Assembly (NCBI GenBank): GCA_023487035.1
Contig: JAMDEN010000014.1
Location: 683-64,682 of the forward strand
From: Actinomycetota bacterium
Lineage (GTDB): Bacteria; Actinomycetota; Humimicrobiia; Humimicrobiales; Humimicrobiaceae
Direction: 5' to 3'
Length of the DNA: 64,000 bases
The notes beneath the pieces are model-generated. The model made no database searches and had not been told where the DNA came from. It was given only the letters and a program-made list of their open reading frames with translations. Position numbers and translations under genes: made by a program. Each line of letters begins with the position of its first letter. The first letter of the stretch is position 1. Below are positions 3,391 to 20,544 of the stretch, piece by piece.

Positions 3391-6300
3391 TTAATTTTTC
3401 TTTGCATCATTTTTACCCTGCAGATAATCAATCATAGGCTTTGAAATTAATGGAATTACATCTTTAAGCATATGAGGCATTAAGTTATCCATTACTTTTG
3501 GCATAATCTGCGGCATCTGTTCGTTCATATAATCAGGCATTGGAATTTTATCTGCCACTCTTTGCAGCATTGTATCCATTACTTTTGGCATCATTTTTGG
3601 AAGAAGTATTGGAAATAAAACTGGAAATAACGGCTTCATTGCTTGAAGTACGCCAGGTATTTTACCGAAAAACCTCATCATTGAGCCCATTTTAAATGGC
3701 ATAGCATTTATTAGCTCAGGCCACATTGACTTCATTATATCAGCAAAACCAGCAGGGCTCATAAGAGCAATCATAGCTTCAAAAACAGCCCATTGTTTTT
3801 TAACTTCCGGATCAGGTTCAGGGAAATCATAACCAATTGCAGATGCTGTAAAATGAGCAAGATCATCAATTTCAAGTGGTATCTGTTTTTTATTTTTTGT
3901 TACTCTGAATTGAAATTCACAACATGGACATAATGATAATACTTTCTTTGCTCCAGCTTCAACAGCTTCATCAAGTCTGACTTTGCCAACTTCTGCTGCT
4001 ACGGTGGGTTCTTTAATTAAGGTTAAAACACTTCCACAGCAATGAGCCTCCTCCTTATTATAATCCATCTCAACTAATGTTACATTGGGAATAGCCTTAA
4101 TAACTTCACGCGGAGCATCGTAAATTCCCATAGCTCTGCCCATATGACAGGAGTCATGCCATGTTACAGTTACAGGTTCCATATTATTTGGAGGAAAAGT
4201 AAATTCCTTATTTTTTATCTTTTCTGCAAGTATTTCAGAATAATGCTTTACCTTTATATCATACTTTATTCCAAGCTTCTTGGCCCATTGAGGATAAACC
4301 TGTCGCCACATCATGTCACATGAAGGACATGAGGCAACAATTGTATTGCCGCCAATATTATTTATAGCATTTATATTTCTCTTCATATTTTCTGCAAATA
4401 CATCCCATTTACCTGCTACAAGCATGGGCACACCACAACAGCTTTCCGTTATTCCCATATAATTAAAGTCAACACCAGCTTCATCCAGCAATCTCACTGT
4501 TGCCATTCCTATGTCATTTTCGACATAACTTGCAGTACAACCAGCAAAATAAACAATATCTGTTTTTTTATCTGGATTATAATGTTTAGCTTTTAAATCT
4601 TGTGGAAACCATGCATCTCTGTCTTTTCGATAACCTGCCCATATATCTCCTTCTTTCTGGAGAGCTGCAGACATCATTTCAAATGGTGGTATAGTCATTT
4701 TATTTTCTTCATTTATTAAAAGCCCCCTTAGTTTCATCCATGAAGGTTCTATCGGAAGATTTACAGAACATTTTGTATTACACATCTCACAAGTTGTACA
4801 TGCTAAAAAAGAATCCACCATATGCTGATTCCATTTTTCACGCCCTTCCATATATTCTCTTAGCCAATACCACCTGCCTCTCGGACTTTGACTTTCCCAA
4901 CCGCGTCCATAATATTGATCGCATTCAGGGACGCAATAACCGCATTGTGAGCATGTATAAGCATACCATGCAACATCAGCGGGAATATCCTTCACCGGTT
5001 TAGCTGGACGTTCCCCAATTTTTGTTGCTACGCTATTCCCGATTGGCCTAATTATTGGCTCTATAAACTCAGCAAAACCCATAATAATATCAATTTTTTT
5101 ATTACCAAAAATCTTTTTAGGATTCATGATATTATAAGGATCTTTATCTGATTTAAACTTTTTTAATTCGGCTAATCTCTCGCTACCTAAAACACTTCGT
5201 GCTTTTTTAGCAAAATACACTCCTGCTGCATAAGCACGTCCTCCATGTTTTTGCGCAATTTTTAATATTGTTAAAGTCAGAGCAAAAACTAAATTATAAC
5301 TGAACTTACGCTGATCACTGGGTATAAATCCTAAAATAACTACTTCTGGTTTACCTTCCCTTCCCTTTTTAATCACAAGCCCTTCTTTTACAACTGGCTG
5401 ACGAACTTTTTTATTTATTTCTGTTAAAACATCATCAAGTGCTGATAAAGGTATGCTAAATTCTGCAGGAACTAAGCTGGGACTTAATCTTTTTACTAAC
5501 ATAACTTTAAATCTGTTTTCCCATTCATGCTGTGCTATTTCGCTGTTAAGTATTTCACCCTGATTTGAATTAACTAAAGCAGATAAATTTTTACTGATTT
5601 CATTACTGTCTTTTTTTCTATAAGCTAAGGTTGCAATATAGGCTTCGGGCAAAATTATTTGCTTTTCTATTATATGGCCTTCATGAGTTCTAAGTGGTGA
5701 TTTATTCTTTAAACTTGCCATTTGCGGATTAATAAAAAGAATTGACCAGATAGGTAAATTTTTATCTGTAACAGTTTGTAAAAATTTTTGAAGGTCATTT
5801 AATTTCTTAAAACTTACAGCAGTAATATCAAGTTCATCATAAGGCATAACTTTAATTGTAATTTCACTTATCAAGCCTGTAGTTCCTTCAGCATCAGATA
5901 TTAAATCCAGTTCAGAGCCTTTAAAATCTTTTATTGTGCCGTCAGGTAGCACCACACGGGCACTTACCACATTATCACGAAATGTACCAGCTTCAAAGGA
6001 ACCTATGCCTGCACCACCCTGTGCAAGCCAGCCGCCAACTGTAGAACCAGGATAACTTGTTGGATATAATTTTAACGTTAACCCTTTTTTGTTAAGTTCC
6101 CTATCCAGTTTTTCCCAAATTATGCCTGGCTGAACTGTTACTGTATTATCTGAAGAATTGATTTTAATAATTTTTTTCATCCTGTAAAAATCAACAACTA
6201 TTCCCTTTTTTAAGGGCAAAACACCTCCATAACCTGAAGTTGCATTACCACGCGGCGTAAGTGCTATATTATGATTTACTGCAAAATTTACTAATTTTAC

Positions 6301-7172: not shown

Positions 7173-7583
7173 TTAAAAATCATTAACAGTCAGAAATTCA
7201 CCTGGGGAAATTATTTGAATATCATTATACTCTTTTAAATTTAATAAGTGCTTATCTCCAGAAATAATATAACTTGCTTTACCGGCAACAGCACATTCAA
7301 TAAATTTTAAATCATCAGAATCATCAATTTCCAAATCTATCTTTTGAACCATATTAAAATACAAAATGTTTTCTTTTCTTTCAAAAATTTTAATAAATTC
7401 ATATAGTTCAGGTTCACCAGCTAAGCCAAGCCGCATTAAAACTTCTAAATATTCTTCTATTATTTCTTTTGTTAAGCAAACAACTAATTTACTTGTTTTC
7501 CATAAATCAATAATTTTCCTCGGGTTGATTGATTGCTTAAAAAAAGAAGATATAAATACATTTGTATCTATAACTACTTTCAT
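7173..7583 (-). CDS. PIN-domain toxin (VapC-like)
   Basis: 136 aa. N-terminal MKVVIDTNVFISSF, characteristic of PIN-domain toxins with acidic residues D6, E, D. 4-bp overlap with the upstream small RHH gene. Confidence 0.75.
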   Translation of the reverse strand: MKVVIDTNVFISSFFKQSINPRKIIDLWKTSKLVVCLTKEIIEEYLEVLMRLGLAGEPELYEFIKIFERKENILYFNMVQKIDLEIDDSDDLKFIECAVAGKASYIISGDKHLLNLKEYNDIQIISPGEFLTVNDF

Positions 7584-7822
7584 TTTTTTCGCACTTCTTC
7601 TATGGCTTTATCAATATCTTTTTCTGAAAACCCTTTGTTTTCAATTTTTTCTGAAATTCTTGACCATAAATCATCAATAATTTTAGAAAAATCATTTTCT
7701 GCTACAAAATCAGCCATTAACTCCCTTACTTTGTCGCTGGTTGTTTTCCCTTCCATTCTTGCTAATTTTGTAAAATCATTTTTTAGATTTTTATCAACTC
7801 TTATTATTATTTTTTCATCCAT
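7580..7822 (-). CDS. ribbon-helix-helix antitoxin (VapB/CopG-like) paired with PIN toxin
   Basis: 80 aa. IIRVDKNLKNDFTKLAR..G.T.S..VRELM pattern of an RHH beta-strand plus two helices. ATGA overlap with the PIN gene. Confidence 0.55.
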   Translation of the reverse strand: MDEKIIIRVDKNLKNDFTKLARMEGKTTSDKVRELMADFVAENDFSKIIDDLWSRISEKIENKGFSEKDIDKAIEEVRKK

Positions 7823-7934
7823 ATTGTGCCTCTTTATCGTATCATTTGTATATTACGTATATACTAATTATACAACTTATGCTCAAAAATTAAATATAAG
7901 AAAATATAAGAAATATAAAATTGTTTAAAAAATA

Positions 7935-8120
7935 TTAAAGGCTTCTTTGCAGTGTCTTAAAATCCATATATTTATTAATCGTATCTATCTGAAATTTAAT
8001 TCTAATTTTTTCATCTTTACAAAAAATTAAATCTCCATAATAAATTACAGAATATTTTAATAAAATAGATGCAGAACTTAAAATTACTAAATCAATTTTA
8101 CTGGTTTTTAAATATGACAT
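7935..8120 (-). CDS. hypothetical small protein
   Basis: ORF 7935..8132 begins with TTG. ATG at 8118-8120 gives about 61 aa (MSYLKTSKIDLVIL...). No recognisable domain. Possibly a gene remnant. Confidence 0.2.
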   Translation of the reverse strand: MSYLKTSKIDLVILSSASILLKYSVIYYGDLIFCKDEKIRIKFQIDTINKYMDFKTLQRSL

Positions 8121-8474
8121 TAAATTAGACAATATTTCAGCCTGATAACCATATTAAGCTAAAGCAGGCTAAAATGAGAACCTTAAAAAAAGAAAAGTAA
8201 GCTAAATAAGAAAAACTTTTATGATTTATGATATTGTTAATGAAAATAAAATGATAAAAAAGTAATAAGATAAAAATATGAAAAATTTATTACATAATTT
8301 AAAAATTCTTTTATAATAAAATACAAGCATTTTTACAACAAATGTAATTTTTTAAAGAATGAAATTAAAGGGCTTGTTTTAAAGCTATATAATGATTTAA
8401 TAGAACTTTTTTAATTAAAATAATAAGTAATTATTTTTCATTAATATTGTTGATAGTAGATTGAAAGGAAATTC

Positions 8475-11400
8475 GTGGCAAGATCAACTGTTCATTATAC
8501 TGATAATGAAACAAATAATATCTTAAAAAGGCTTCACAATAAATTAAGACCTGCTGGTACCCCTGTTCAAAGGGTTGAATATATTATCGAACTTTTACTT
8601 CTTCGTATTTTTGAAATCAAATTAAAGCAGGATGAAGATTTTATACCTTTAAGAAGTCTTTTTGAAGGTGAGAATTATCAATTATTATTTTCTCATCTTG
8701 TAAGTATTCCGGGAGAACAAATAAAAATTTACCTTAATAAAAATATTTTTCCCTTTTATGCCCAAATTTTATCTAAAGCGAGAAGTGTATTTAAAGAAAA
8801 TTTACCACAAAAAGTTCAGGATAATTTAGTTTTAATTGAAGAAGTATTTGCCAATTCCAGCTTTTCAACCAATGTTCAAAGTGGTAATATGACTGAAATT
8901 ATTGGACTTGTTTCAGATATTGATGAGAATACTATTTTAAGAACTGATATTTTAGGCGATGCTATAGAATCAGCACTTTCTGAAACGGGAGGTACACAGG
9001 ATATAGGACTTTTTAGAACTCCTGAGCATATTCGCCAGATGATGGTTGCATTAGCCAATCCTACTTTCGAAGATACAATATTTGACCCTGCCTGTGGAAC
9101 AGGGGGTTTTCTTTTTGATGCTTATCATTATGTTTTAGAAAAGATTACTAAAGATGGAAAATGGCCGTCTTCAAAATTTCCACCATCTCATCCTGAATTA
9201 AATGAATATTTCAAGAAATACTTTATAAAATTTAATGAACCAATACCAGATATCGATACTGCCAATAGATTTTATCGCGAAGGAGTTAGTGGAATTGAAT
9301 ATTTGGGAATGATAAGGAAGATGGCGGCAATCAATCTTTATATTCGAGGTTTAAATCCGGCAAATATTATCCAAGGGGATTCTTTACAACGCTTTAACCC
9401 TGCACTTGATATGGAATCAAAGACTTTGATATTAAGTAATCCTCCTTTTGGTGCAGAAAGAGACCAACCAGCATATCCGAATATTTGGCAGGAATATGCA
9501 AAGGAGTCTGAAACAACAATTTTATTTGTAAAATTAATGTTTGATTTGCTTAAAAAAGGCGGTAGGTGTGCAGTTGTAGTGTCAGAAGGATTTTTAACCT
9601 GGGATAAAGCATCTGCAAGAGCAATGAGAAAAATTCTTTTAGAAGAGGCAAATTTAAGAGCAATTATTAGTGTTCCTCAAGGTGTTTTTGTCAGCAAGCA
9701 AGGCCAGGGTGCAAAAACCTCTATTTTATACTTTGAAAAAGGTGAACCTACTAAGTGGGTATGGTATTACAAGATTGAAAATGATGGCTTCTCAATGGGG
9801 GTGAATAGAAAACCTATTGAGGGATGCCAAATTCCAGAGATAATTGAGCTCTTTCATAATTATGTAAAACAAGGCAAAATTCCACCAGAAACAAAAAATA
9901 GTTTTATTATTCCTGCGGAATGGATAAAAACATTAGACCCGAGATTAAAAGAAAGAATAAAACAAGAAACAAAAAAAGTAATTTTGCTAAGGAATAAGGG
10001 TAAAAGAGACAAATTAGTTGAGGAGCTAGAAGAGAAAAAACAAAGAGGAAAAATAACCGATGAAATAATAAAAGAAAAACTCTGGCAGTTTGATAATGTT
10101 TTAGAAAACAAAATTAAAAATGAAATATCAAAGCAGATAGAGAAATCGCACCTTTATTCTTTCAATCTTCAGACATATAGAAGCGATCTAACTGATGAGC
10201 AAATCAAAGAATGGCAGAAAGCTTTAAAGAATATTGAGCCAAAAAATAATTCAACTTTGGATGAAAAATACCAGATGCTAAAAACTGCTGATGAAAAATT
10301 AGCTCTTCAATTAATAGCTTCTTTAAACCCAAAAAGTGCCATTGAAATGGACATAGCACATGAGTTTGTAGGAGCAAATCATGAATTGCATATATTTAGA
10401 AGTTTGAATGAGATATTGAAGAAAAGACATAGATATCCAAAAGAAAAACTTGAGAATCTTTTAATACCTAAATATGAAAAAATTGCCAAAGAAGACTACA
10501 AAGGCGATTTTGAGATAATTGAAAAAATAGATTTTGCAAAAGGGCAAATATATTTTAGAAAAGAAAAGCTGACAGGAATGGATCTTTATAAAGCAAATAC
10601 TGGGGATTTAATAACTTCAAAAATTAATCTTTATCAAGGTGCTATCACAATTGCTCCAATTGATTTGGTTTGTTCAACACATTATCAAGTTTATGAGATA
10701 AATACTCAAAAAATACTGCCAAAATATATGTTTTATGTTTTGAGATCAAAGAAATTTTTAGAACCAATTGCAGAGCAAAGAAGCCAAGGTATTAAAAATG
10801 AACAAGGACCAAAGTTTTTGTTAGATTTTTCAATCCCACTTCCCCCTCTTGAGGTTCAGCAACAGATTGTAGAACAAATTGAAAGGCAAAAAGCTATCAT
10901 TGAGGGTGCAGAAAAGATTTTGGAGAACTGGGAGGTAGATATAAATAGATTTTATGGTGAACAATTTGAATTCAGAGAGATTTTCAAAACTCAATATGGC
11001 TATACTGCCTCGGGAACTAATTATGGGGAATTTCGGCTGATTAGGATTACAGACATAAATAGATATGGACAATTAATTGAAGAAAATAAAATGTATGTAA
11101 ATACAATTAGCGAAGCCGATAAACAAATATATATGCTGAAAAAGGGAGATATTTTGATTGCAAGGACAGGAGCTACTTTTGGAAAAATGCTTTATTTTGA
11201 TAAAGATGAAAAGGCGATTTTTGGTTCATATTTGATTAGGTTAATACCTAAGATAAAAATAAATTCTAAATATATATGGTATTACTCATTTTCTATGTCT
11301 TATTGGAAACAAGCTAAAGAATTGGTCGAAGGAGGAACTCAACCTCAATTTAATGCAAATAAAATCATCAAAATAAAAATCCCTATTCCTCCTCTTGAAA

Positions 11401-11522
11401 TCCAAAAACAAATTATTGAAGAATTGGACAAAGAGATGGGGGTATTAGAAAAAGTCAAATTCCTTAAACAAAAAGCCGAAAAAAGAATTGAGGAGATTTT
11501 AGAAAAAGCATGGGGAGAATAA
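8475..11522 (+). CDS. fused type I restriction-modification methyltransferase-specificity protein (HsdM domain + two HsdS target-recognition domains)
   Basis: 1015 aa. GTG start 5 nt after AAAGGAA. HsdM_N-like N-terminus. N6-adenine MTase motif I DPACGTGGFL and motif IV NPPFG. Coiled-coil linker. Two TRD-like halves, each ending in the HsdS conserved-region pattern (PLPPLEVQQQIVEQIE.., PIPPLEIQKQIIEELD..). Confidence 0.8.
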   Translation: MARSTVHYTDNETNNILKRLHNKLRPAGTPVQRVEYIIELLLLRIFEIKLKQDEDFIPLRSLFEGENYQLLFSHLVSIPGEQIKIYLNKNIFPFYAQILSKARSVFKENLPQKVQDNLVLIEEVFANSSFSTNVQSGNMTEIIGLVSDIDENTILRTDILGDAIESALSETGGTQDIGLFRTPEHIRQMMVALANPTFEDTIFDPACGTGGFLFDAYHYVLEKITKDGKWPSSKFPPSHPELNEYFKKYFIKFNEPIPDIDTANRFYREGVSGIEYLGMIRKMAAINLYIRGLNPANIIQGDSLQRFNPALDMESKTLILSNPPFGAERDQPAYPNIWQEYAKESETTILFVKLMFDLLKKGGRCAVVVSEGFLTWDKASARAMRKILLEEANLRAIISVPQGVFVSKQGQGAKTSILYFEKGEPTKWVWYYKIENDGFSMGVNRKPIEGCQIPEIIELFHNYVKQGKIPPETKNSFIIPAEWIKTLDPRLKERIKQETKKVILLRNKGKRDKLVEELEEKKQRGKITDEIIKEKLWQFDNVLENKIKNEISKQIEKSHLYSFNLQTYRSDLTDEQIKEWQKALKNIEPKNNSTLDEKYQMLKTADEKLALQLIASLNPKSAIEMDIAHEFVGANHELHIFRSLNEILKKRHRYPKEKLENLLIPKYEKIAKEDYKGDFEIIEKIDFAKGQIYFRKEKLTGMDLYKANTGDLITSKINLYQGAITIAPIDLVCSTHYQVYEINTQKILPKYMFYVLRSKKFLEPIAEQRSQGIKNEQGPKFLLDFSIPLPPLEVQQQIVEQIERQKAIIEGAEKILENWEVDINRFYGEQFEFREIFKTQYGYTASGTNYGEFRLIRITDINRYGQLIEENKMYVNTISEADKQIYMLKKGDILIARTGATFGKMLYFDKDEKAIFGSYLIRLIPKIKINSKYIWYYSFSMSYWKQAKELVEGGTQPQFNANKIIKIKIPIPPLEIQKQIIEELDKEMGVLEKVKFLKQKAEKRIEEILEKAWGE

Positions 11523-13876
11523 AAAATAAATCAGGACAAGACATGATTAAAAGAATTAAAAAAATCAAAAATATAGCAGTTTTTAAGGATTTTAATTGGG
11601 ATTCAAATATTATTCCTGATTTTAAAAAGTATAATGCTTTTTACGGTTGGAATGGAACCGGTAAAACTACGATTGCTAGAATTTTGTCTACTTTTGAAAA
11701 ATGCGAATTAGGTAAACTTGAATTAGACGATGATTCACTCTGTGTTATTGAAATAGACAATAGTACATTAAAGTTATCAAAAAATGATCCTATTCCGGAT
11801 TTACTTAAAAATAATATAAGGGTTTTTAACGAAGATTTTGTAAATGAGAATCTTGATTGGGTAGAAGGAAGGGCTTCAAAAATTTTAATAATGGGTAAAG
11901 AACAGAAAAAACAGAGGGAAACATTAGATTCAATAATATATAAGTTAGGAAATAAAAATAATGATCTTAAAATGAAAGAGCAAGAAAATAGCAATATTAA
12001 AAAAGAGAAAAACAATATTTTAGAAAAAGCAAGAAATGAAATAAAAGAAAATTTAAGAGAGGTTAATGATATAAAGCCTAAAAGTGGCCGAGCAACTGAC
12101 TATATAAACTATACTGTAGTAGATGTTGAAAATATATTAATAAAAAGTGATGAAGTTATATTAATTAAAGATGATGAGATGTTACAGCTCAAAAATTCAT
12201 TAAAAGAAAAGGAAACAAAGGAGCTTATTGAAGATATAGAAATTCATTTGGGGTGGATTCATAGCATTATAGAGAAATCAAAAAAGATATTTGAAACCAT
12301 CATCCCGGATGAAGGTTTAAGATTATTATCAAATTTAGGAAATATTGATGAAAAATTAAAAGAATGGTTAAGAGTTGGCTATGAGATTCATAAAGAAAAA
12401 CAACATCCAGTTATATGTGAATTTTGCAAAAACGAAATTCCAGAAAAGAGAATCGAAAAATTAGGAGAGTATTTTAGCGATGTTTTAATAAATTTGATTA
12501 AAAATATCGACCAAATTACTAAAGATATCTTACGGAATGAACTTCAAAACTTTCAATTAAAAAAAGAAAAATTTTATAGTGAATTTCAAAATGAGTTTTT
12601 GAATTTAAGCAATATATTCAATCAGCAAGAAAATATAATTAGGCAAGAATTAGATAAAATCAAAAAGATACTAGCAGAAAAGAAAAATAATTCTTCACAA
12701 AAAATTATTTTTGATTTTAATATTCTTAACAAATCCATTACAGGTTTAGAAAATATTATTATTCAGATAAATAGCCTGATTAAAAAGAATAATGAAAAAA
12801 CTAATTCATTTAAAGAAAAACGGGCTGAATATGCACATAATTTAGAATCAGCCATTATTAACAAATATAAACCTGATTATGATGAAAAAGAGAAGAGGTT
12901 AAATGAATTGTGGACGGATATAAAATCATTAAGCAAAGAAATAGAAGAATTAAAAACAAATCAAAATAATATTGAGCGAAACCTTAAAAAACATTATTTT
13001 GCTGCTGAAGAATTTAATAATTTATTGAGATTTTTTTTGGGAAGAAGTGAGATAAGTTTAGAAACGGTGGAAGATGGTTATTTAATAAAAAGAAATGGGA
13101 AAGTTGCAAGTAATTTAAGTGAAAGTGAAAAAAATACAATAGCACTAATTTATTTTCTAATTAAATTAGATGAAGAAAATTTTGATTCTAAAAATGGAAT
13201 AATTGTGATAGATGACCCCGTTTCAAGTTTTGACTCTCAATATCTTTATGGTGCTTTTGCATTTATAAAAGAAAAAGTTAAAGAATTAAATCCACAACAA
13301 GTTTTTATTTTTACCCATAATTTTCCGTTTTTCAGACTTGTTAGAGATTGGATGAAATATGAATATTCTAGAAAAACTTGGGATAAGTTGCCATTTTATA
13401 TGATAAAATCCAAATTAAATGCTACTGGGCGCTATTCTACTTTAGATAAAATAGACAAATTATTAAATGAATATAACTCCGAATATTCTTATTTATTCAA
13501 AAAGATTTATAATAGGGCTAATACTCAAGATAGCAGTTTAGATGATGATTATATTTTCCCCAATGCGATAAGAAAATTTTTAGAGAATTATATTTCATTT
13601 AAAGTACCAATTAGTGGTATAAATATTCATGAGAAACTTAAAAATTTGTGTAATGACTATTATTCACTTATTGAACCGAAAATAAAAACACAAATAGAAT
13701 CTTATTGTCAAGACCAATCCCATCCTTTATATCAAGATAGTCCTATTGATTTTGATGAGAGATTACTTGGTGAAATACAAGAAATATGTTCAGCAATAAT
13801 TGAATTGGTAAAAAAAACAGATCCAAAGCATTATCAAAATTTATTGAAAGAATGTGGATTTAGTAATAATGAGTAA
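11510..13876 (+). CDS. AAA_13-family ABC-type ATPase with long coiled-coil and CxxC hook (RloC/PrrC-like candidate abortive-infection anticodon nuclease)
   Basis: 788 aa. Overlaps the hsdMS stop by 13 nt. Walker A GWNGTGKTT (aa 46-54). About 400-aa coiled-coil insert with C303-x2-C306 near its midpoint. Signature-like LSESEKNTIALIYFL. Walker B/D-loop IIVIDDPVSSFD. H-loop FIFTHN. C-terminal domain with FPNAIRKFLENYISFKVP...H. Confidence 0.6.
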   Translation: MGRIKNKSGQDMIKRIKKIKNIAVFKDFNWDSNIIPDFKKYNAFYGWNGTGKTTIARILSTFEKCELGKLELDDDSLCVIEIDNSTLKLSKNDPIPDLLKNNIRVFNEDFVNENLDWVEGRASKILIMGKEQKKQRETLDSIIYKLGNKNNDLKMKEQENSNIKKEKNNILEKARNEIKENLREVNDIKPKSGRATDYINYTVVDVENILIKSDEVILIKDDEMLQLKNSLKEKETKELIEDIEIHLGWIHSIIEKSKKIFETIIPDEGLRLLSNLGNIDEKLKEWLRVGYEIHKEKQHPVICEFCKNEIPEKRIEKLGEYFSDVLINLIKNIDQITKDILRNELQNFQLKKEKFYSEFQNEFLNLSNIFNQQENIIRQELDKIKKILAEKKNNSSQKIIFDFNILNKSITGLENIIIQINSLIKKNNEKTNSFKEKRAEYAHNLESAIINKYKPDYDEKEKRLNELWTDIKSLSKEIEELKTNQNNIERNLKKHYFAAEEFNNLLRFFLGRSEISLETVEDGYLIKRNGKVASNLSESEKNTIALIYFLIKLDEENFDSKNGIIVIDDPVSSFDSQYLYGAFAFIKEKVKELNPQQVFIFTHNFPFFRLVRDWMKYEYSRKTWDKLPFYMIKSKLNATGRYSTLDKIDKLLNEYNSEYSYLFKKIYNRANTQDSSLDDDYIFPNAIRKFLENYISFKVPISGINIHEKLKNLCNDYYSLIEPKIKTQIESYCQDQSHPLYQDSPIDFDERLLGEIQEICSAIIELVKKTDPKHYQNLLKECGFSNNE

Positions 13877-13930
13877 TTATCATGATCCTTAAAGAAACCG
13901 CATAAACATATTTAAGAGGAGTTGTGAGTT

Positions 13931-14974
13931 TTGCTAGTAAAAAAATCAAAAAATAACCTTACTGATAATCAAGCAGAGAAAACCGAAGATTCTGGCATTG
14001 TTATTTATCAAACAAATGATGGTAAAGTTGAATTAGATGTGAAACTTGAGAAAGAGACACTGTGGTTAACGCTTAATCAGATGGCTTTACTTTTTCAGAG
14101 AGACAAATCAGTTATATCAAGACATATAAAAAATATATATAAAACAGAAGAGTTAAATAAAAAATCAACTGTTGCATTTTTTGCAACAGTTCAAAATGAA
14201 GGTGGCAGACTTATTCAAAGACAAATGGAATATTACAATCTAGATATGATTATTTCTGTGGGCTATCGGGTAAATTCAAAGCAAGGTACTCAATTCCGTA
14301 TCTGGGCAACTAAGGTTTTGAAAGATTATCTTGTCCAAGGTTACGTCATAAATCAAAAAAAACTTCTGGAACAAACTGAGAAATTCGAGTTGCTGCAAAA
14401 TACTATAAATTTTTTAAAAAATAAATCTATATATCCTGAACTGCATGATAAAACAGAAGAACTTTTAAGCTTTCTTGAAGATTATTCAAAATCGCTTACT
14501 ATTCTAAATCAATACGATAGCGGTGAAATTTCTTTAGTTAAAGGATATAAACCAACTTATAAGATAACTTATAAAAAATGCGAGCAGTTGATACAAGAGG
14601 TAAAAATAAGTCTCATGCAGAAAAATGAGGCTACTGATTTATTTGGTAAAGAAATAAATAATAAACTTAAAAGTATAATTGGGGCAATTTATCAAACATT
14701 TAACAAAAAAGACTTGTATCCAAGTATTGAGGAAAAGGCAGCAAATTTATTGTATTTAATAATTAAAGACCATCCATTTGTTGATGGTAATAAGCGAATT
14801 GGTTCACTGCTTTTTTTACATTTCCTTGCAAAGAATAATTATTTATTAAAAAACAGTGGGGAAAGAAAAATTAATGATAACACTATTATTGCACTTGCTT
14901 TATTAATTGCTATAAGTTTGCCAGTTGAAAAAGATATTATGATTAAAATTATTACAAATTTGTTAATAGGATAA
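13931..14974 (+). CDS. RhuM-family protein with Fic/Doc (Fido) domain, Doc-type motif
   Basis: 347 aa. N-terminal RhuM-like region (IVIYQTNDGKVELDV..ETLWLTLNQMALLFQRDKSVISRHIKNI). C-terminal Fido motif HPFVDGNKRIG (Doc-type HxFx[DN][AG]NKR) at nt 14771-14803. TTG start at 13931 after AAGAGGAG. Confidence 0.75.
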   Translation: MLVKKSKNNLTDNQAEKTEDSGIVIYQTNDGKVELDVKLEKETLWLTLNQMALLFQRDKSVISRHIKNIYKTEELNKKSTVAFFATVQNEGGRLIQRQMEYYNLDMIISVGYRVNSKQGTQFRIWATKVLKDYLVQGYVINQKKLLEQTEKFELLQNTINFLKNKSIYPELHDKTEELLSFLEDYSKSLTILNQYDSGEISLVKGYKPTYKITYKKCEQLIQEVKISLMQKNEATDLFGKEINNKLKSIIGAIYQTFNKKDLYPSIEEKAANLLYLIIKDHPFVDGNKRIGSLLFLHFLAKNNYLLKNSGERKINDNTIIALALLIAISLPVEKDIMIKIITNLLIG

Positions 14975-14976
14975 TT

Positions 14977-17352
14977 ATGAATCTTAATGAAGCAACATCA
15001 ACTGATTTAAAGATAATAAACGAACTTCAGAAAATTGGCTGGAAACCAGGAGATACTCTACTTTATCAGCCAGAATATAAATTGACTGAAGACCAACAAA
15101 AAGAATTTTCTGGACATAAAAGTATTAAACCAGATGTTGTCCTCCAGGATTTACACGGTAATGTTTTAGCTGTTTTTGAAAATAAGCTTGAAAACGAGAA
15201 AAAAGCGTTAACCAAATTAAGAACTTTATATTGGCGTGTTTTAAAACCAAGATTTTTATACGCTTGTTCATCCGAAAGAATACTTTTTTATGATACTTGT
15301 TGGCGTGGACTGGAAGCAGGTGATTTCAGACGAGTTGACGGTTTTATGACACTGGAAGAAATGCTTTTAAAAATTGAGCAAGAAAAACAAAAGAATTTAC
15401 AAAGAGAAATTATTATTGATAAGGCAATAATTGGTGGTTATGACCCAGTAGTTGGTAAGGAAAGATATTTTCAGACTGAATGCGTTCAAACTTTGGTTGA
15501 AAAATATAAACAAGGAAAACAAAAAATGCTTGTGCATATGGCAACAGGTCTTGGAAAAACAAGGATAGCTGTTGCTTTTACAAAAGCATTATTACAGTAT
15601 GGACTTGCAAAAAGAGTTTTATTTGTGGTTGATAGAATTATACTTGCAGAACAAGCTCGTAATGAGGGATTTAGTTTGATTAATAAAGATTTTCATTGTG
15701 CCTGGGTTAAAAGTTCAAATTATAAACAATACAGAAATTATAATATCCATATTGTTGTTATTGATACTTTAGAGAATATTTTTCAGGAAATTCCCAATAC
15801 CTTTTATGATTTGATTATCGTTGATGAATGCCATCGTTCAATAAATATTAACCGTAAGTTGATTTTTGATCATTTTTTATGTCCAAGAGTAGGTTTAACT
15901 GCTACGCCAAAAAAGGCGATTTTAGCAAAAGATGCTAAAGATATTTCAGAAGAAGATTTAGAGATTTTAGACACTTATAAACTTTTTGGATGTGAAACAA
16001 ACGAACCAGATTATCAATTTGATTTATCCCATGGAATTGATGAAGGATTTTTAGCCCCATACAAAGTTTTGGAAATAAAAACCCAACTTACTAAGGAAGC
16101 AGAAGAAAAGGGAATTGAATTTGATTATGTTTTTGATCCTGACACAAGAAAAAAGATTGAATTAGATAAGACAAAAAAGATTTGGCTTGAACAACTTGAA
16201 AAGAAATACTTATCGGAAGAAAGAGCTTTAAGAATTGCTGAAGAAATCAAGAAAAATACTCAATATGGTGAAAAGATGATTTTATTTGGAGCAAGTCAAG
16301 CACATTGTATTATTCTTGCTGATGCCATTAACAAAGTTTTTAGTGATAATGGAGAAATTGCCCCAAAATATGCTGAGGCAATTATTTCAGATAATAGTAA
16401 TATAAATGATACTTTAAAAGAATGGTTTAAAAATCCAAATAGAAAACCATATATTGTAGCTTCAGTTGATATTATGACTACAGGAGTAGATATACCTTGT
16501 GTAAGATTTATCGGTTTTGTTACATTAACCAAATCTGTAGGAAAATATATTCAAATGCTTGGAAGAGGTACAAGACTTGATCCAAAATCAGGTAAGTTTA
16601 GCTTTACCATCTTAGATTTTGTAGGACTTTGCAAAAAGATGGAAGATAATGGAAAAGGTACACTAAAACCAAATATAAAAATTGTAAAAGAGTCAAAGAA
16701 CATCTTAAAAGGATGGGCTGAAAAAATAGGAGAAACTCCTATTAATTGGGTTTTTATACCTAATCCTGATCCTGCAAATATGATTCAAAGGGTTTGGGTT
16801 CATGAGCGAGGTATTAAAATTATAGATAATATCCCGATAGAAGAAGCAAAAAAGTTATTTGAAGAAGAGGCACAGAAAATCACAAGAGATGATATATTAT
16901 CATTGCAACAAAAAGTTAAAGAAAATCCAAAATATGAACCTACTGATAGCGATTTAGAAATTATAAAAGAATGGGCAAAAAATCCTGAAATATATCTTGA
17001 TGAAGAACAACTTAAAAGGATATACAATTATCCTCAAGGAAATATCTGGGATTTCTTTTTACATGCTACTGGAGTTAAAAGTATACCAACACTTGAAGAA
17101 AGGATAGAAAAAGGATTTGAAGAATTTATTAAAGCTTACAATTTCACTAATGACGAGCAGGTAAGAATTCTTGAAAGAATAAAAAATATTTTAGCTAAAA
17201 ATTATATAAATAATAAAAGATTATCTTCTAATGATATATTCTCCTCGCCCATTTATGAACAGATTGTTGGTAGAAAAGAAGAATTAGATAAAGTATTTCA
17301 AAATAGATTTTCTGAAATTTTAAAATATCTCGAAGAATCAATTAAAATTTAA
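14977..17352 (+). CDS. HsdR-like restriction endonuclease subunit (N-terminal PD-(D/E)xK nuclease + SF2 helicase), short form
   Basis: 791 aa. N-terminal KPDVVL...VFENKLE (PD...ExK). Helicase motif I MATGLGKTRIA, motif II IIVDECHR, motif III TATP, motif VI QMLGRGTR. Immediately follows the RhuM gene (stop/start separated by 2 nt). Confidence 0.8.
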   Translation: MNLNEATSTDLKIINELQKIGWKPGDTLLYQPEYKLTEDQQKEFSGHKSIKPDVVLQDLHGNVLAVFENKLENEKKALTKLRTLYWRVLKPRFLYACSSERILFYDTCWRGLEAGDFRRVDGFMTLEEMLLKIEQEKQKNLQREIIIDKAIIGGYDPVVGKERYFQTECVQTLVEKYKQGKQKMLVHMATGLGKTRIAVAFTKALLQYGLAKRVLFVVDRIILAEQARNEGFSLINKDFHCAWVKSSNYKQYRNYNIHIVVIDTLENIFQEIPNTFYDLIIVDECHRSININRKLIFDHFLCPRVGLTATPKKAILAKDAKDISEEDLEILDTYKLFGCETNEPDYQFDLSHGIDEGFLAPYKVLEIKTQLTKEAEEKGIEFDYVFDPDTRKKIELDKTKKIWLEQLEKKYLSEERALRIAEEIKKNTQYGEKMILFGASQAHCIILADAINKVFSDNGEIAPKYAEAIISDNSNINDTLKEWFKNPNRKPYIVASVDIMTTGVDIPCVRFIGFVTLTKSVGKYIQMLGRGTRLDPKSGKFSFTILDFVGLCKKMEDNGKGTLKPNIKIVKESKNILKGWAEKIGETPINWVFIPNPDPANMIQRVWVHERGIKIIDNIPIEEAKKLFEEEAQKITRDDILSLQQKVKENPKYEPTDSDLEIIKEWAKNPEIYLDEEQLKRIYNYPQGNIWDFFLHATGVKSIPTLEERIEKGFEEFIKAYNFTNDEQVRILERIKNILAKNYINNKRLSSNDIFSSPIYEQIVGRKEELDKVFQNRFSEILKYLEESIKI

Positions 17353-17548
17353 ATTTTATGAAAATCAAGAATTTAATAAATTCAGAATAATATTGGTCTG
17401 GTTAGATAATCTGGCTTATATATTCTTTTAATTAAGCAATTTCTAATATATCATTAATTTAATTATAAGCTTAATTGTAAACTTAAAATTTAGATCGTAA
17501 TTTAGATCGCAAAAACATTTATTTTGTACAAATAAAATATTAAAAATT

Positions 17549-18130
17549 ATGACTCAATACGAAAGAAAAATAGCAGCTATAAATAAAATTTTAAATTCAG
17601 CTGAAAATTACATTAAAAAAAATGGAATAAATTCTTTAGACATTAATGAAATTTGTAAAGAAGCTGGCCTCACAAAAGGTGCATTTTACCATCATTTTAA
17701 AAATAAACAGCACCTTTTACTGGAGCTACTTAACAGGTGGATAAATAAAGTCTCATCACAAGTTGAAATTCCAATATCAGGTGATTTTAATACAACTGAA
17801 CTTATATTTTATATTATTGAAAAAATGTCTCCTTCATTTGAGCAGGCTGAAAGCCAACTGCCAATTTTTCTGGAATTATATATTAAAGCCATAAGTGATA
17901 AAAATTTAAAAAAATATGTATTAAAATCCTATAACAGCTTCCTTGATTTTTTTAGTGATTTATTAAAAGAAGGTATGTCAAAAGGATATATTAAAAAAGA
18001 AAATCCGACACAAGTAGCGAAAATACTTTTTTCAATTACTTTAGGGCTTTTGATTCAAGGATTAATCGATCCCTCTGGAGAAAACTGGAATGAGTTAGCA
18101 AAAAAAAGTGTAAGAATGCTTTTATCTTAA
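17549..18130 (+). CDS. TetR/AcrR-family transcriptional regulator
   Basis: 193 aa. N-terminal HTH (INEICKEAGLTKGAFYHHFKNKQHLLLEL). Confidence 0.75.
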   Translation: MTQYERKIAAINKILNSAENYIKKNGINSLDINEICKEAGLTKGAFYHHFKNKQHLLLELLNRWINKVSSQVEIPISGDFNTTELIFYIIEKMSPSFEQAESQLPIFLELYIKAISDKNLKKYVLKSYNSFLDFFSDLLKEGMSKGYIKKENPTQVAKILFSITLGLLIQGLIDPSGENWNELAKKSVRMLLS

Positions 18131-18790: not shown

Positions 18791-18904
18791 GATTTTTCTT
18801 TTATGATTTCTTTAAAAAAAAATTTCTTTAAAAAGGCTTTTAATTTTAACAGTAAAAATGTATTATTAATACGATAATTAGGTTAATAATTTATTTGAAA
18901 ACTT

Positions 18905-19060
18905 AATATTTTTAATTTATTCAGGGAATTCGGTGAAAAACCGGAGCGGTGCCGCCACTGTAATCGGGTGTGTGCTTTTCAATATGTCACTGACTTTAAA
19001 AGTCGGGAAGGCGAAAGGCAAAGTCCCGAAAGCCAGGATACCTTTAAAAAAATTTAAAAT
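18905..19060 (+). promoter_or_regulatory. cobalamin (AdoCbl) riboswitch aptamer
   Basis: Matches conserved core elements of the cobalamin riboswitch: AGGGAA, CGGTGAAAAACCGG, GCGGTGCCGCCACTGTAA (B12 box), CACTGAC, AGTCGGGAAGGC, GCCAGGATACC. Confidence 0.8.
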
Positions 19061-19125
19061 TATATCTCTTCGGCCTAAAGAGTATTTTTTTTATTTAAAA
19101 ATATTTTTATCTAAAAATGTATTTT

Positions 19126-19275: not shown

Positions 19276-19803
19276 ATGGCAAAATTAAAAAAGGGCTACA
19301 TTCAAATTTACACGGGAGATGGTAAAGGGAAAACAACAGCAGCATTAGGACTTGCTTTAAGGGCGGCTGGATTTGGCCTTAAAGTTTTTATTGCACAATT
19401 TATAAAAGGTATGCAGTATTCAGAGATAAAAGCTTTGAAAAAATATTCAGATAATATTTCAGTCAAGCAATATGGCAGAGGATGTTTTATTATGCGCGAA
19501 CCTGAAAAAGAAGATTATTCTGCTGCAAAAAATGGATTTGATGAGATTAAAAAAATTATAAAAGACGGATTATATGATATTGTCATACTTGATGAAATAA
19601 ATATAGCTGTTCAGTTAAAACTTATAAATATTATGGATCTGATAGAAATTATGGAAAACAAACCTGAAAATATCGAGCTTATTCTTACAGGAAGAGGCGC
19701 AGATGAAGAAATAATAAAAAGAGCTGATCTTGTTACGGAAATGAGAGAAATAAAACATTATTATAGAGCAGGTGTTTTAGCTCGAACTGGAATTGAAAGA
19801 TAA
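19276..19803 (+). CDS. cobO: cob(I)yrinic acid a,c-diamide / cob(I)alamin adenosyltransferase (CobA/CobO/BtuR type)
   Basis: 175 aa. GYIQIYTGDGKGKTTAALGLALRAAG P-loop. ...VILDEINIA... LILTGRGA... ADLVTEMREIKH typical of CobA-type ATP:corrinoid adenosyltransferases. SD AAAGGA upstream. Confidence 0.85.
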   Translation: MAKLKKGYIQIYTGDGKGKTTAALGLALRAAGFGLKVFIAQFIKGMQYSEIKALKKYSDNISVKQYGRGCFIMREPEKEDYSAAKNGFDEIKKIIKDGLYDIVILDEINIAVQLKLINIMDLIEIMENKPENIELILTGRGADEEIIKRADLVTEMREIKHYYRAGVLARTGIER

Positions 19804-20041: not shown

Positions 20042-20287
20042 ATGGCTGAGAATAAAAAAATATGTAAAAATATAGATCCTAAAGTTATTGCATATATTGC
20101 AGGTGGGGCTGTTGCGGGCGGAATAGTTGGCTATATCATACATAAAGTTGGTTTTAAAAATGTGGCAAAGATTTTAAAAGATAAAAATATAATCTCTTCA
20201 GGTATTGGTGACTTTATAAAAGATTTTGATTTAAAATCTTTTACTTCAAAAAATAATAAGGATTTTGAAGATTTAGAAGAGGATTAA
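20042..20287 (+). CDS. hypothetical small protein with one Gly/Ala-rich TM segment
   Basis: 81 aa. SD GGAGG 8 nt upstream of ATG. VIAYIAGGAVAGGIVGYIIH hydrophobic segment. No recognisable domain. Confidence 0.3.
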   Translation: MAENKKICKNIDPKVIAYIAGGAVAGGIVGYIIHKVGFKNVAKILKDKNIISSGIGDFIKDFDLKSFTSKNNKDFEDLEED

Positions 20288-20544
20288 GGAATGTCTATTT
20301 GCATTTCCTTGTGAATATTCGATTCGCTTATCCTCGAGAGAAGCTCTTTAAGTTCATACTCTTCTGTCTCAACAGGTGATATAACTATTTGCTTATTTTC
20401 AACTTTAATTTCTACAGCTGAGTTCTCCTTAAGCTTTAGCTCCTTAATGTAAGCATTTGGCAGTCTTAATCCAAGACTATTACCCCATTTTTGAATTTTA
20501 GTTATCAAATTAAATAGTTTGTATGTGTTAATTAATATATACAA
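20284..20544 (-). CDS. AbrB/MazE/SpoVT-type (swapped-hairpin) antitoxin-like protein, apparently orphan
   Basis: IQKWGNSLGLRLP motif typical of MazE/PemI/ChpS-type antitoxins. True start probably downstream of the annotated one. No toxin gene adjacent. Confidence 0.5.
   Translation of the reverse strand: MYILINTYKLFNLITKIQKWGNSLGLRLPNAYIKELKLKENSAVEIKVENKQIVISPVETEEYELKELLSRISESNIHKEMQIDIP

Follow-up and report, generated by a model that had tools for sequence, protein, structure and literature searches.

A natural methylase-specificity fusion and its HsdR partner as the probable chassis for RloC and RhuM-Doc cargo in a defence locus of an Actinomycetota bacterium

We analysed a 64,000-nucleotide stretch of DNA (henceforth the window) deposited as Actinomycetota bacterium (GenBank assembly GCA_023487035.1, contig JAMDEN010000014.1, positions 683 to 64,682 of the forward strand), and in particular a candidate defence locus at positions 8475–17352 of the window. 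According to the list of open reading frames (ORFs), this interval is filled by four co-directional genes on the plus strand (as are all their sub-regions given below), which encode a fusion of the methylase HsdM with the specificity subunit HsdS (M-S fusion, or MS), an RloC-family ATPase, a fusion of RhuM and Doc domains (RhuM-Doc) and the restriction subunit HsdR. The junctions along the locus are -13, +54 and +2 nt, and the start codons are GTG for the MS gene, ATG for rloC, TTG for the RhuM-Doc gene and ATG for hsdR. This layout reproduced exactly that of a first-pass annotation made from the sequence alone, and all four domain assignments proposed there were upheld by Pfam, PADLOC and NCBIfam. 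A conjugative ATPase was considered as an alternative and rejected, as no such family was matched in these scans, and the motifs of the hsd genes are intact. Since the catalytic motifs are in fact complete in all four of the four genes, none of them is, by its sequence, a pseudogene. Identical proteins in the same four-gene order were found in independent assemblies (at least three sequencing runs), and the locus is therefore not an assembly chimera. Given their spacing, the genes probably form a single operon.

The first gene (8475–11522) encodes a protein of 1015 amino acids (aa) in which an N6-adenine methyltransferase and a specificity module form one polypeptide, i.e., not the separate M and S subunits (M2S1 core) of Type I enzymes. 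Pfam detected N6_Mtase (9e-36) and two stretches of Methylase_S (3e-23), while PADLOC placed MTase_I at aa 16–523 (1.4e-78) and Specificity_I at aa 705–986. The HsdM part (aa 1–523; 8475–10043) matched the PADLOC MTase_I profile PDLC03021 over its full length (positions 6–476 of 491), and its motif I (DPACGTGGF at 204) and motif IV (NPPF at 322) are those of gamma-class N6-adenine methyltransferases. The fusion is widespread: the family returned more than 1000 database hits from many phyla, and M and S were fused in more than 100 full-length homologues.

The two halves of the specificity module behave differently in evolution. The first region resembling a target recognition domain (TRD; aa 643–810; 10401–10904) is conserved across the family, with 71–85% identity across related loci and a majority-residue fraction of 0.64 over 40 homologues, equal to that of the linker. 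By contrast, the second TRD (aa 836–985; 10980–11429), which coincides with the best Pfam Methylase_S stretch (832–986), is hypervariable: its majority-residue fraction is 0.39, and it is only 26–30% identical among loci whose M part is 82–89% identical (the range between the window and four related loci). Changes of specificity thus seem, from these comparisons, to be confined to one TRD, unlike in classical HsdS. The bipartite target predicted earlier is doubtful: two Methylase_S-type regions are present, but since only the C-terminal TRD varies in the family, the site recognised may not be bipartite and freely variable.

The fourth gene (14977–17352) encodes a Type IB-like HsdR of 791 aa with a PD-(D/E)xK nuclease, a superfamily 2 (SF2) motor and an EcoEI_R_C tail. 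Its motifs are P52-D53...E68-N-K70, GLGKT at 191, DECH at 283, TAT at 308 and QMLGRGTR at 526; Pfam recognised the ResIII/helicase domains and EcoEI_R_C, and PADLOC recognised REase_I (3.4e-51). The EcoAI/FtnUII profile NF046051 aligned from end to end (residues 8–775 against positions 6–750 of 768; 3.7e-75) with a score of 253.8 bits, under the equivalog cut-off of 550. Judged by this alignment, the protein is related to EcoAI HsdR, yet is not its equivalog. HsdR had been described as short, but its length is normal, as five relatives measure 789–794 aa (and the EcoAI/FtnUII profile has 768 positions). Together, the M-S fusion and HsdR make up the core of the locus, a Type I-like restriction-modification (R-M) system of two genes.

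Between these two genes lies first the gene for a 788-aa protein (11510–13876), in which a Rad50-like ATP-binding cassette (ABC) ATPase is split by a coiled-coil/zinc-hook insert and followed by an anticodon-nuclease domain at the C-terminus. RloC proteins have been defined by PrrC-like ABC motifs, a Rad50-like coiled coil with a CxxC hook, a length of 658–897 aa and a C-terminal R-x3-E-x36-52-H triad in which Ser often precedes His (Davidov & Kaufmann 2008; PMC2610378). The protein in the window falls within this size range and matches Pfam AAA_13 over aa 23–764 (1e-116). Its ATPase motifs (Walker A GWNGTGKT at 46, the signature LSESEK with L536, S537 and E540, Walker B IVIDDP at 564–569 and switch H603) do not vary in an alignment of 27 homologues that extends to 27% identity, and the same holds in these homologues for both cysteines of the hook (C303-E-F-C306; 12416–12427). 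In the structure model, the hook sits in a short beta-hairpin of a helical insert, between long helices at 130–182 and 357–493, and the nuclease domain of ACNase/HEPN type (aa 659–788; 13484–13876) is all-helical. The triad R688-x3-E692-x45-S737-H738 fits the published pattern, and all four of its residues are invariant among the 27 homologues, several of which are labelled ‘wobble nucleotide-excising tRNase’ by JGI. By every testable criterion of sequence and model, the 788-aa protein is a member of the RloC family, with a predicted nuclease activity, which bears out the RloC-like ATPase with a Rad50-like coiled coil and CxxC hook proposed at first pass. A sequence search of the PDB with this protein returned no match, and a profile search of the PDB returned coiled-coil noise and one marginal match to Rad50; fold searches with the predicted model placed the ATPase head and coiled coil closest to Rad50, SMC and LmuB.

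Three other identities were considered and rejected. As an identity of the 788-aa protein, PrrC is far smaller (341–416 aa), lacks the insert and occurs in a different R-M context. For Lamassu, the LmuB matches were weak (6.7e-9), genes for LmuA and LmuC were absent and the RloC triad is present. For MADS, the scores were far below the cut-offs (74.7 against 720 for MAD2 and 39.7 against 400 for MAD5).

The second gene of the interior (13931–14974) encodes a 347-aa fusion and has a Shine-Dalgarno sequence, AAGAGGAG, 8 nt upstream of its TTG start. Pfam detected Virulence_RhuM (8e-27) and Fic (2e-12). The RhuM match (PF13310; 94.6 bits against a gathering score of 33.7) covers aa 79–188 and positions 1–111 of the 252-position profile, the remainder of which is replaced by a Doc domain that also passes the cut-off of TIGR01550 DOC_P1 (46.3 against 38.65 bits); accordingly, NCBI names the identical protein ‘virulence protein RhuM/Fic/DOC family protein’. 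The RhuM region (aa 43–188; 14057–14494) is modelled as a winged-helix-like helix-turn-helix with a beta-hairpin (aa 43–113) followed by two long helices. It has weak structural matches to small DNA-binding domains, and a relaxed Pfam scan of the N-terminal and linker pieces gave only a weak hint of HTH_38 (E 0.13). An N-terminal extension of about 13–20 aa is absent from most homologues, and the model is disordered at residues 1–42. The architecture itself is very common: the search scored over 8000 database hits, of which the best 120 all share it.

Fic-fold kinases of the Doc type carry the motif HxFx(D/N)(A/G)NKR, in which K replaces the second G of Fic and which sets Doc apart from the Fic AMPylases. 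The Doc-type Fic domain in the window (aa 214–346; 14570–14968) has HPFVDGNKR at aa 281–289 (nt 14771–14797), every residue of which is invariant across 42 homologues, and the motif is therefore of Doc type and not of AMPylase type, as had been proposed. The closest structure to this domain is P1 Doc, and the model has the minimal Doc-like Fic fold. No Phd-type antitoxin gene was found upstream, where the 54-nt gap to rloC contains no ORF, and none of three plasmid-borne RhuM-Doc genes had an antitoxin-like partner annotated upstream.

We then compared the window with other loci that carry a homologue of the M-S fusion, and the chassis comparison comprised six such contexts. In these six contexts the constant partner of the fusion is an HsdR of about 790 aa with an EcoEI_R_C domain. 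In two of the loci (L177 and the JGI locus, with MS 55% and 54% identical to that of the window, respectively) the gene order is R then MS, the two genes abut and the gap is empty. In the other four, MS comes first and the space before R is filled by a KAP NTPase (L173; MS 75% identical), a reverse transcriptase (L176; 68%), a RhuM-Fic protein (L174; 66%; the contig end cuts R) or an AAA_15/21 ABC ATPase followed by a split RhuM-Fic gene (L175; 69%). While HsdR in the latter four loci is 77–84% identical to that of the window, the cargo is either unrelated or, for RhuM-Doc, just 55–63% identical, i.e., below the identity of the chassis. The chassis is conserved and the cargo swapped, and we therefore consider the gap between MS and R to be a cargo slot, of which RloC and RhuM-Doc are interchangeable occupants; what had been presented as an integrated four-part system is on this evidence a two-gene chassis whose middle genes are exchangeable. 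A conserved chassis with a hot-swappable slot is a mildly new lead and not a claim. The split RhuM-Fic gene in L175 consists of a 65-aa ORF with the helix-turn-helix part (5156–5353) and a 261-aa ORF (5365–6150); about 20 residues are lost between the two ORFs, and the gene is probably a disrupted copy.

The cargo genes can also be followed outside this chassis. The closest relatives of the RloC protein (59–68% identical) lie between the mod and res genes of Type III R-M systems in five of five contexts, often with gaps of 1–4 nt (relative loci examined: L084, L085, L088, L090, L091 and L092, with RloC at about 8001–10300 in most of them). A homologue from Kosmotoga (58%) adjoins a BREX/Pgl-like cluster of BrxC/PglY, a methylase and SNF2. 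Altogether, this clade was adjacent to R-M or BREX genes in seven of the seven contexts examined, mostly Type III; in one locus (L090) an IS1595 transposase interrupts the mod gene. We also surveyed 80 distant family members among the matches listed (24–33% identity, one per species). As context counts based on single-sequence phmmer searches under-detect ordinary hsd genes, we annotated neighbours with batch Pfam searches instead, and found Methylase_S (12 of 97) and ResIII (10 of 97) to be the commonest immediate neighbours, with R-M genes present in a minority of loci. Five of the 80 loci, from different phyla, had RloC and a RhuM-domain gene within one hsd cluster, and members of the family also occur stand-alone on conjugative plasmids and on viral contigs. 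The RloC papers describe R-M linkage as rare (8 of 72), so that the strict adjacency of this clade to R-M or BREX genes, against an RloC family that is otherwise ‘rarely linked’, is a second mildly new lead.

These contexts bear on the proposal that the toxins of this locus are kept latent by the R-M complex, by which the Type I enzyme would hold RloC and/or RhuM-Doc inactive until phage anti-restriction releases them. Such logic is that of PrrC-EcoprrI, and it would be consistent with the 13-nt overlap and 2-nt gap in the window, which suggest translational coupling, with R-M genes standing beside RloC-family genes more often than any others do and with the R-M or BREX adjacency of its clade in every context seen. 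Work on GkaRloC of Geobacillus kaustophilus found that its nuclease is held off by the protein’s own zinc hook and ATPase until ATP and linear double-stranded DNA are present, and argued that this internal silencer is the reason why rloC travels without an R-M silencer, while leaving it possible that an R-M protein acts on RloC (Klaiman et al.; PMC3458546). However, the partners of the clade differ (Type III in five of five, one BREX/Pgl-like, Type I here), making a conserved silencing interface unlikely, and the chassis occurs with other cargo or none. Because RloC has an internal silencer and the R-M partners of its relatives differ, a specific partnership with the Type I enzyme is unlikely here, and we consider a PrrC-like integrated system as a whole to be improbable.

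RhuM-Doc, which had been described as restriction-linked, proved not to be mainly so. In 71 metagenomic loci its neighbours belonged to 164 families, and of 111 immediate neighbours about 3 were R-M domains. In three of the three plasmid contexts examined the gene stood alone, once as a passenger of Tn3, and it was likewise found on viral contigs; some RhuM-Doc genes elsewhere adjoin hsdM or hsdS. Both cargo proteins matched PADLOC families over their full length, RloC to PDC-S06 (9e-166) and RhuM-Doc to PDC-S23 (5e-127), in a check that the first-pass annotation had proposed, and the N-terminal half of RhuM-Doc matched PDC-S05 (9e-72). In E. coli, a lone RhuM-domain gene of PDC-S05 lowers the plating of phages T7 and T5 about 1000-fold (bioRxiv 10.1101/2024.09.26.614923). 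This protection by a single gene supports the autonomy of the RhuM module and, like the occurrence of RloC and RhuM-Doc alone on plasmids, transposons and phages, speaks against toxins that depend on the R-M enzyme.

The mobility of both families raises another explanation, namely that RloC and RhuM-Doc are selfish toxin passengers in a tolerant slot, which mainly stabilise themselves or the cassette through post-segregational killing and contribute little to phage defence. Addiction is the classic role of P1 Doc, members of both families are often carried by plasmids, transposons and prophages, the split RhuM-Fic gene mentioned above suggests decay, and a selfish benefit of embedding has been discussed by Payne et al. 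(2024). Against this, the catalytic residues are invariant and conservation is strong, addiction modules need a partner antitoxin and none is present, a RhuM-domain gene gives strong protection against phages, and the other occupants of the slot (reverse transcriptase, KAP NTPase and AAA_15/21) come from defence-associated families. We therefore regard addiction or hitch-hiking as an unlikely account of the locus.

Taken together, we consider it fairly probable that an R-M chassis has captured two independent, self-contained defence modules in the gap between MS and R. As judged from its domains, the MS protein would methylate host DNA, with the single variable TRD largely determining the site, and together with HsdR would translocate on and cut unmodified incoming DNA. 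By analogy with GkaRloC, the RloC protein would be kept silent by its own zinc hook and coiled coil until ATP together with DNA ends or DNA damage activates the C-terminal nuclease, which would then excise the wobble nucleotide of tRNA and so stop translation. In RhuM-Doc, the winged-helix-like N-terminal domain may act as the sensor or regulator of a cue and the Doc kinase as the effector, probably phosphorylating EF-Tu as P1 Doc does. The three layers would be additive, transcribed together and carried by the same mobile unit, with no obligate complex and no requirement for the R-M enzyme to silence the toxins. A bolder version, in which the gap is a dedicated, fast-turnover landing site for single-gene abortive-infection modules, whose exchange outpaces the divergence of the chassis, and the DNA ends made by the chassis’s own restriction of phage DNA trigger RloC, seems to us rather unlikely; if true, it would mean that successful and not failed restriction shuts down translation, the opposite sense to PrrC.

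Several observations weigh against independent cargo. The contexts are few (six for the chassis and seven for RloC), and the single transcript is argued from gene spacing alone, as the promoter and terminator scan was uninformative. The protective PDC-S05 protein is known as a RhuM-domain protein and may lack a Doc domain. An ABC ATPase precedes RhuM-Doc both in the window and in L175, which hints that the ATPase and RhuM-Doc may be paired. No antitoxin gene that would keep the kinase off is visible for Doc. Finally, RhuM-Doc abuts hsdR by 2–5 nt in three loci of the chassis, which could reflect a closer functional tie than expected of independent cargo. One form of such a tie would be a C-protein-like regulator of hsdR, with Doc modifying HsdR or MS (e.g., in restriction alleviation); the winged-helix-like N-terminal domain, the position just upstream of hsdR and the lack of an antitoxin would all suit this role. 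Yet the majority of RhuM-Doc genes lack any R-M neighbour, those that have one may adjoin hsdM or hsdS instead, and systems with the same chassis exist without RhuM-Doc, which leaves a regulatory function very improbable compared with capture of independent modules.

The surroundings of the operon are as described at first pass, with ArsR and a PIN/VapC pair on the left, TetR on the right and neither tRNA nor integrase genes found in either flank. Small genes of toxin-antitoxin-like kind lie on both sides. On the left, a VapC-like PIN gene (7173–7583, minus strand) is preceded by its 80-aa upstream partner (7580–7822, minus strand) and accompanied by a 65-aa fragment of a Pol-beta nucleotidyltransferase (7935–8132, minus strand) without a HEPN partner. 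On the right, the TetR gene is followed by an ordinary cobalamin riboswitch (18878–19063; 90.7 bits), which marks the contig as bacterial and is located before a gene for a CobA/BtuR-type corrinoid adenosyltransferase (19276–19803), and by a MazE-like antitoxin ORF (20284–20544). In the 342-nt gap upstream of the MS gene, the best promoter candidate is sigma-70-like (8289–8317, plus strand; 10 of 12 consensus positions) and constitutes weak evidence: the scan of 7900–17700, which is AT-rich, returned 48 sites against 57 in shuffled sequences. The same scan found no convincing terminator 3′ of hsdR.

We found no direct repeats flanking the operon and no deviation in GC content at the operon (0.25–0.32 against 0.29). 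The operon is bracketed by a 41-nt imperfect inverted repeat with one arm in each flanking gap (8390–8430 and 17416–17456; the arms are 80% complementary), whose score of 21 was reached in 0 of 200 shuffles (null 12.3 +/- 1.5). A comparable inverted repeat was absent around four related modules; the repeat may mark the ends of a cassette or be a coincidence of promoter and terminator sequences. The identical proteins mentioned above were deposited under two conflicting labels of metagenome-assembled genomes, ‘Actinobacteria bacterium’ and ‘Cyanobacteriota bacterium’; given a G+C content of 29%, at least one of them is probably a binning error.

How much of this is new is best judged against earlier work. 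Anantharaman, Makarova, Burroughs, Koonin and Aravind (2013, Biol Direct 8:15; PMC3710099) described neighbourhoods of R-M genes with RloC-like ABC-HEPN and DOC/RhuM genes, noted that RhuM is frequently fused to DOC and that RloC occurs in Pgl operons, and proposed a ‘three-level defense strategy’ aimed at DNA, RNA and proteins. Their neighbourhoods have the same components and logic as the window and were described computationally, without experiments; the M-S-fusion chassis, the cargo slot and the Type III preference of the window’s RloC clade do not feature there. The idea of a layered defence acting on DNA and translation, as proposed at first pass, is therefore sound but was published in 2013, and the combination of genes, unrecognised at first pass, had been described in the same paper, with both cargo genes now also listed as PADLOC candidates. 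Since the components and the three-layer idea are published, RloC has been characterised by biochemistry and protection by a RhuM-domain gene is known, the locus is a good example and not a new kind of system. Its value lies in being a clean, intact and natural case of defence genes nested in a restriction operon, for which related genomes offer near-identical chassis with other cargo. It could thus serve as a test bed for whether a functional link exists between embedded toxins and the R-M enzyme around them or the two merely travel together, and for the control and target of a RhuM-Doc that has no antitoxin.

The individual parts each have close counterparts. With GkaRloC (COG4694, ‘wobble nucleotide-excising tRNase’) the window protein shares size, ABC motifs, hook and triad, a likeness established by motif criteria, and wobble-nucleotide excision gated by a DNA-dependent ATPase is known for GkaRloC only. 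PrrC-EcoprrI, in the Type IC hsd locus of E. coli, is likewise an anticodon-nuclease-type gene between hsd genes with the same type of triad; but PrrC has 341–416 aa and no coiled coil or hook, is always linked to Type IC systems and owes its silencing to the R-M enzyme, whereas the window combines a 788-aa protein with a hook, an IB-like chassis with an M-S fusion and relatives in Type III loci. The heads of Lamassu LmuB, Rad50 and SMC are the best structural matches, while the effector in the window is a fused C-terminal RNase-type domain. Compared with P1 Doc of the Phd/Doc pair, the window protein has no Phd gene beside it, and its Doc domain is fused to an N-terminal RhuM/helical region of about 200 aa. 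In PADLOC, PDC-S06 and PDC-S23 are candidate single-gene systems, and this separate treatment agrees with the reading of RloC and RhuM-Doc as independent cargo. Payne et al. formalised ‘guilt by embedding’, with defence genes nested in Type I R-M systems, and placed the families in PADLOC, RhuM being their embedded family FAM_00003. As for the chassis, HsdR is of EcoAI type with the EcoEI_R_C tail of Type IB enzymes (EcoAI/EcoEI), under the NF046051 cut-off as noted. An engineered M-S fusion of EcoKI, termed ‘Type IMS’, restricts with HsdR alone in vivo (Roberts et al. 2012; PMC3510504); it has been suggested to bridge the evolutionary step to Type IB. M is fused to S in the window in the same way, except that the fusion here is natural and widespread and has one variable TRD, and the pair of M-S fusion and ~790-aa EcoEI_R_C HsdR seems to be what corresponds in nature to the engineered Type IMS enzyme.

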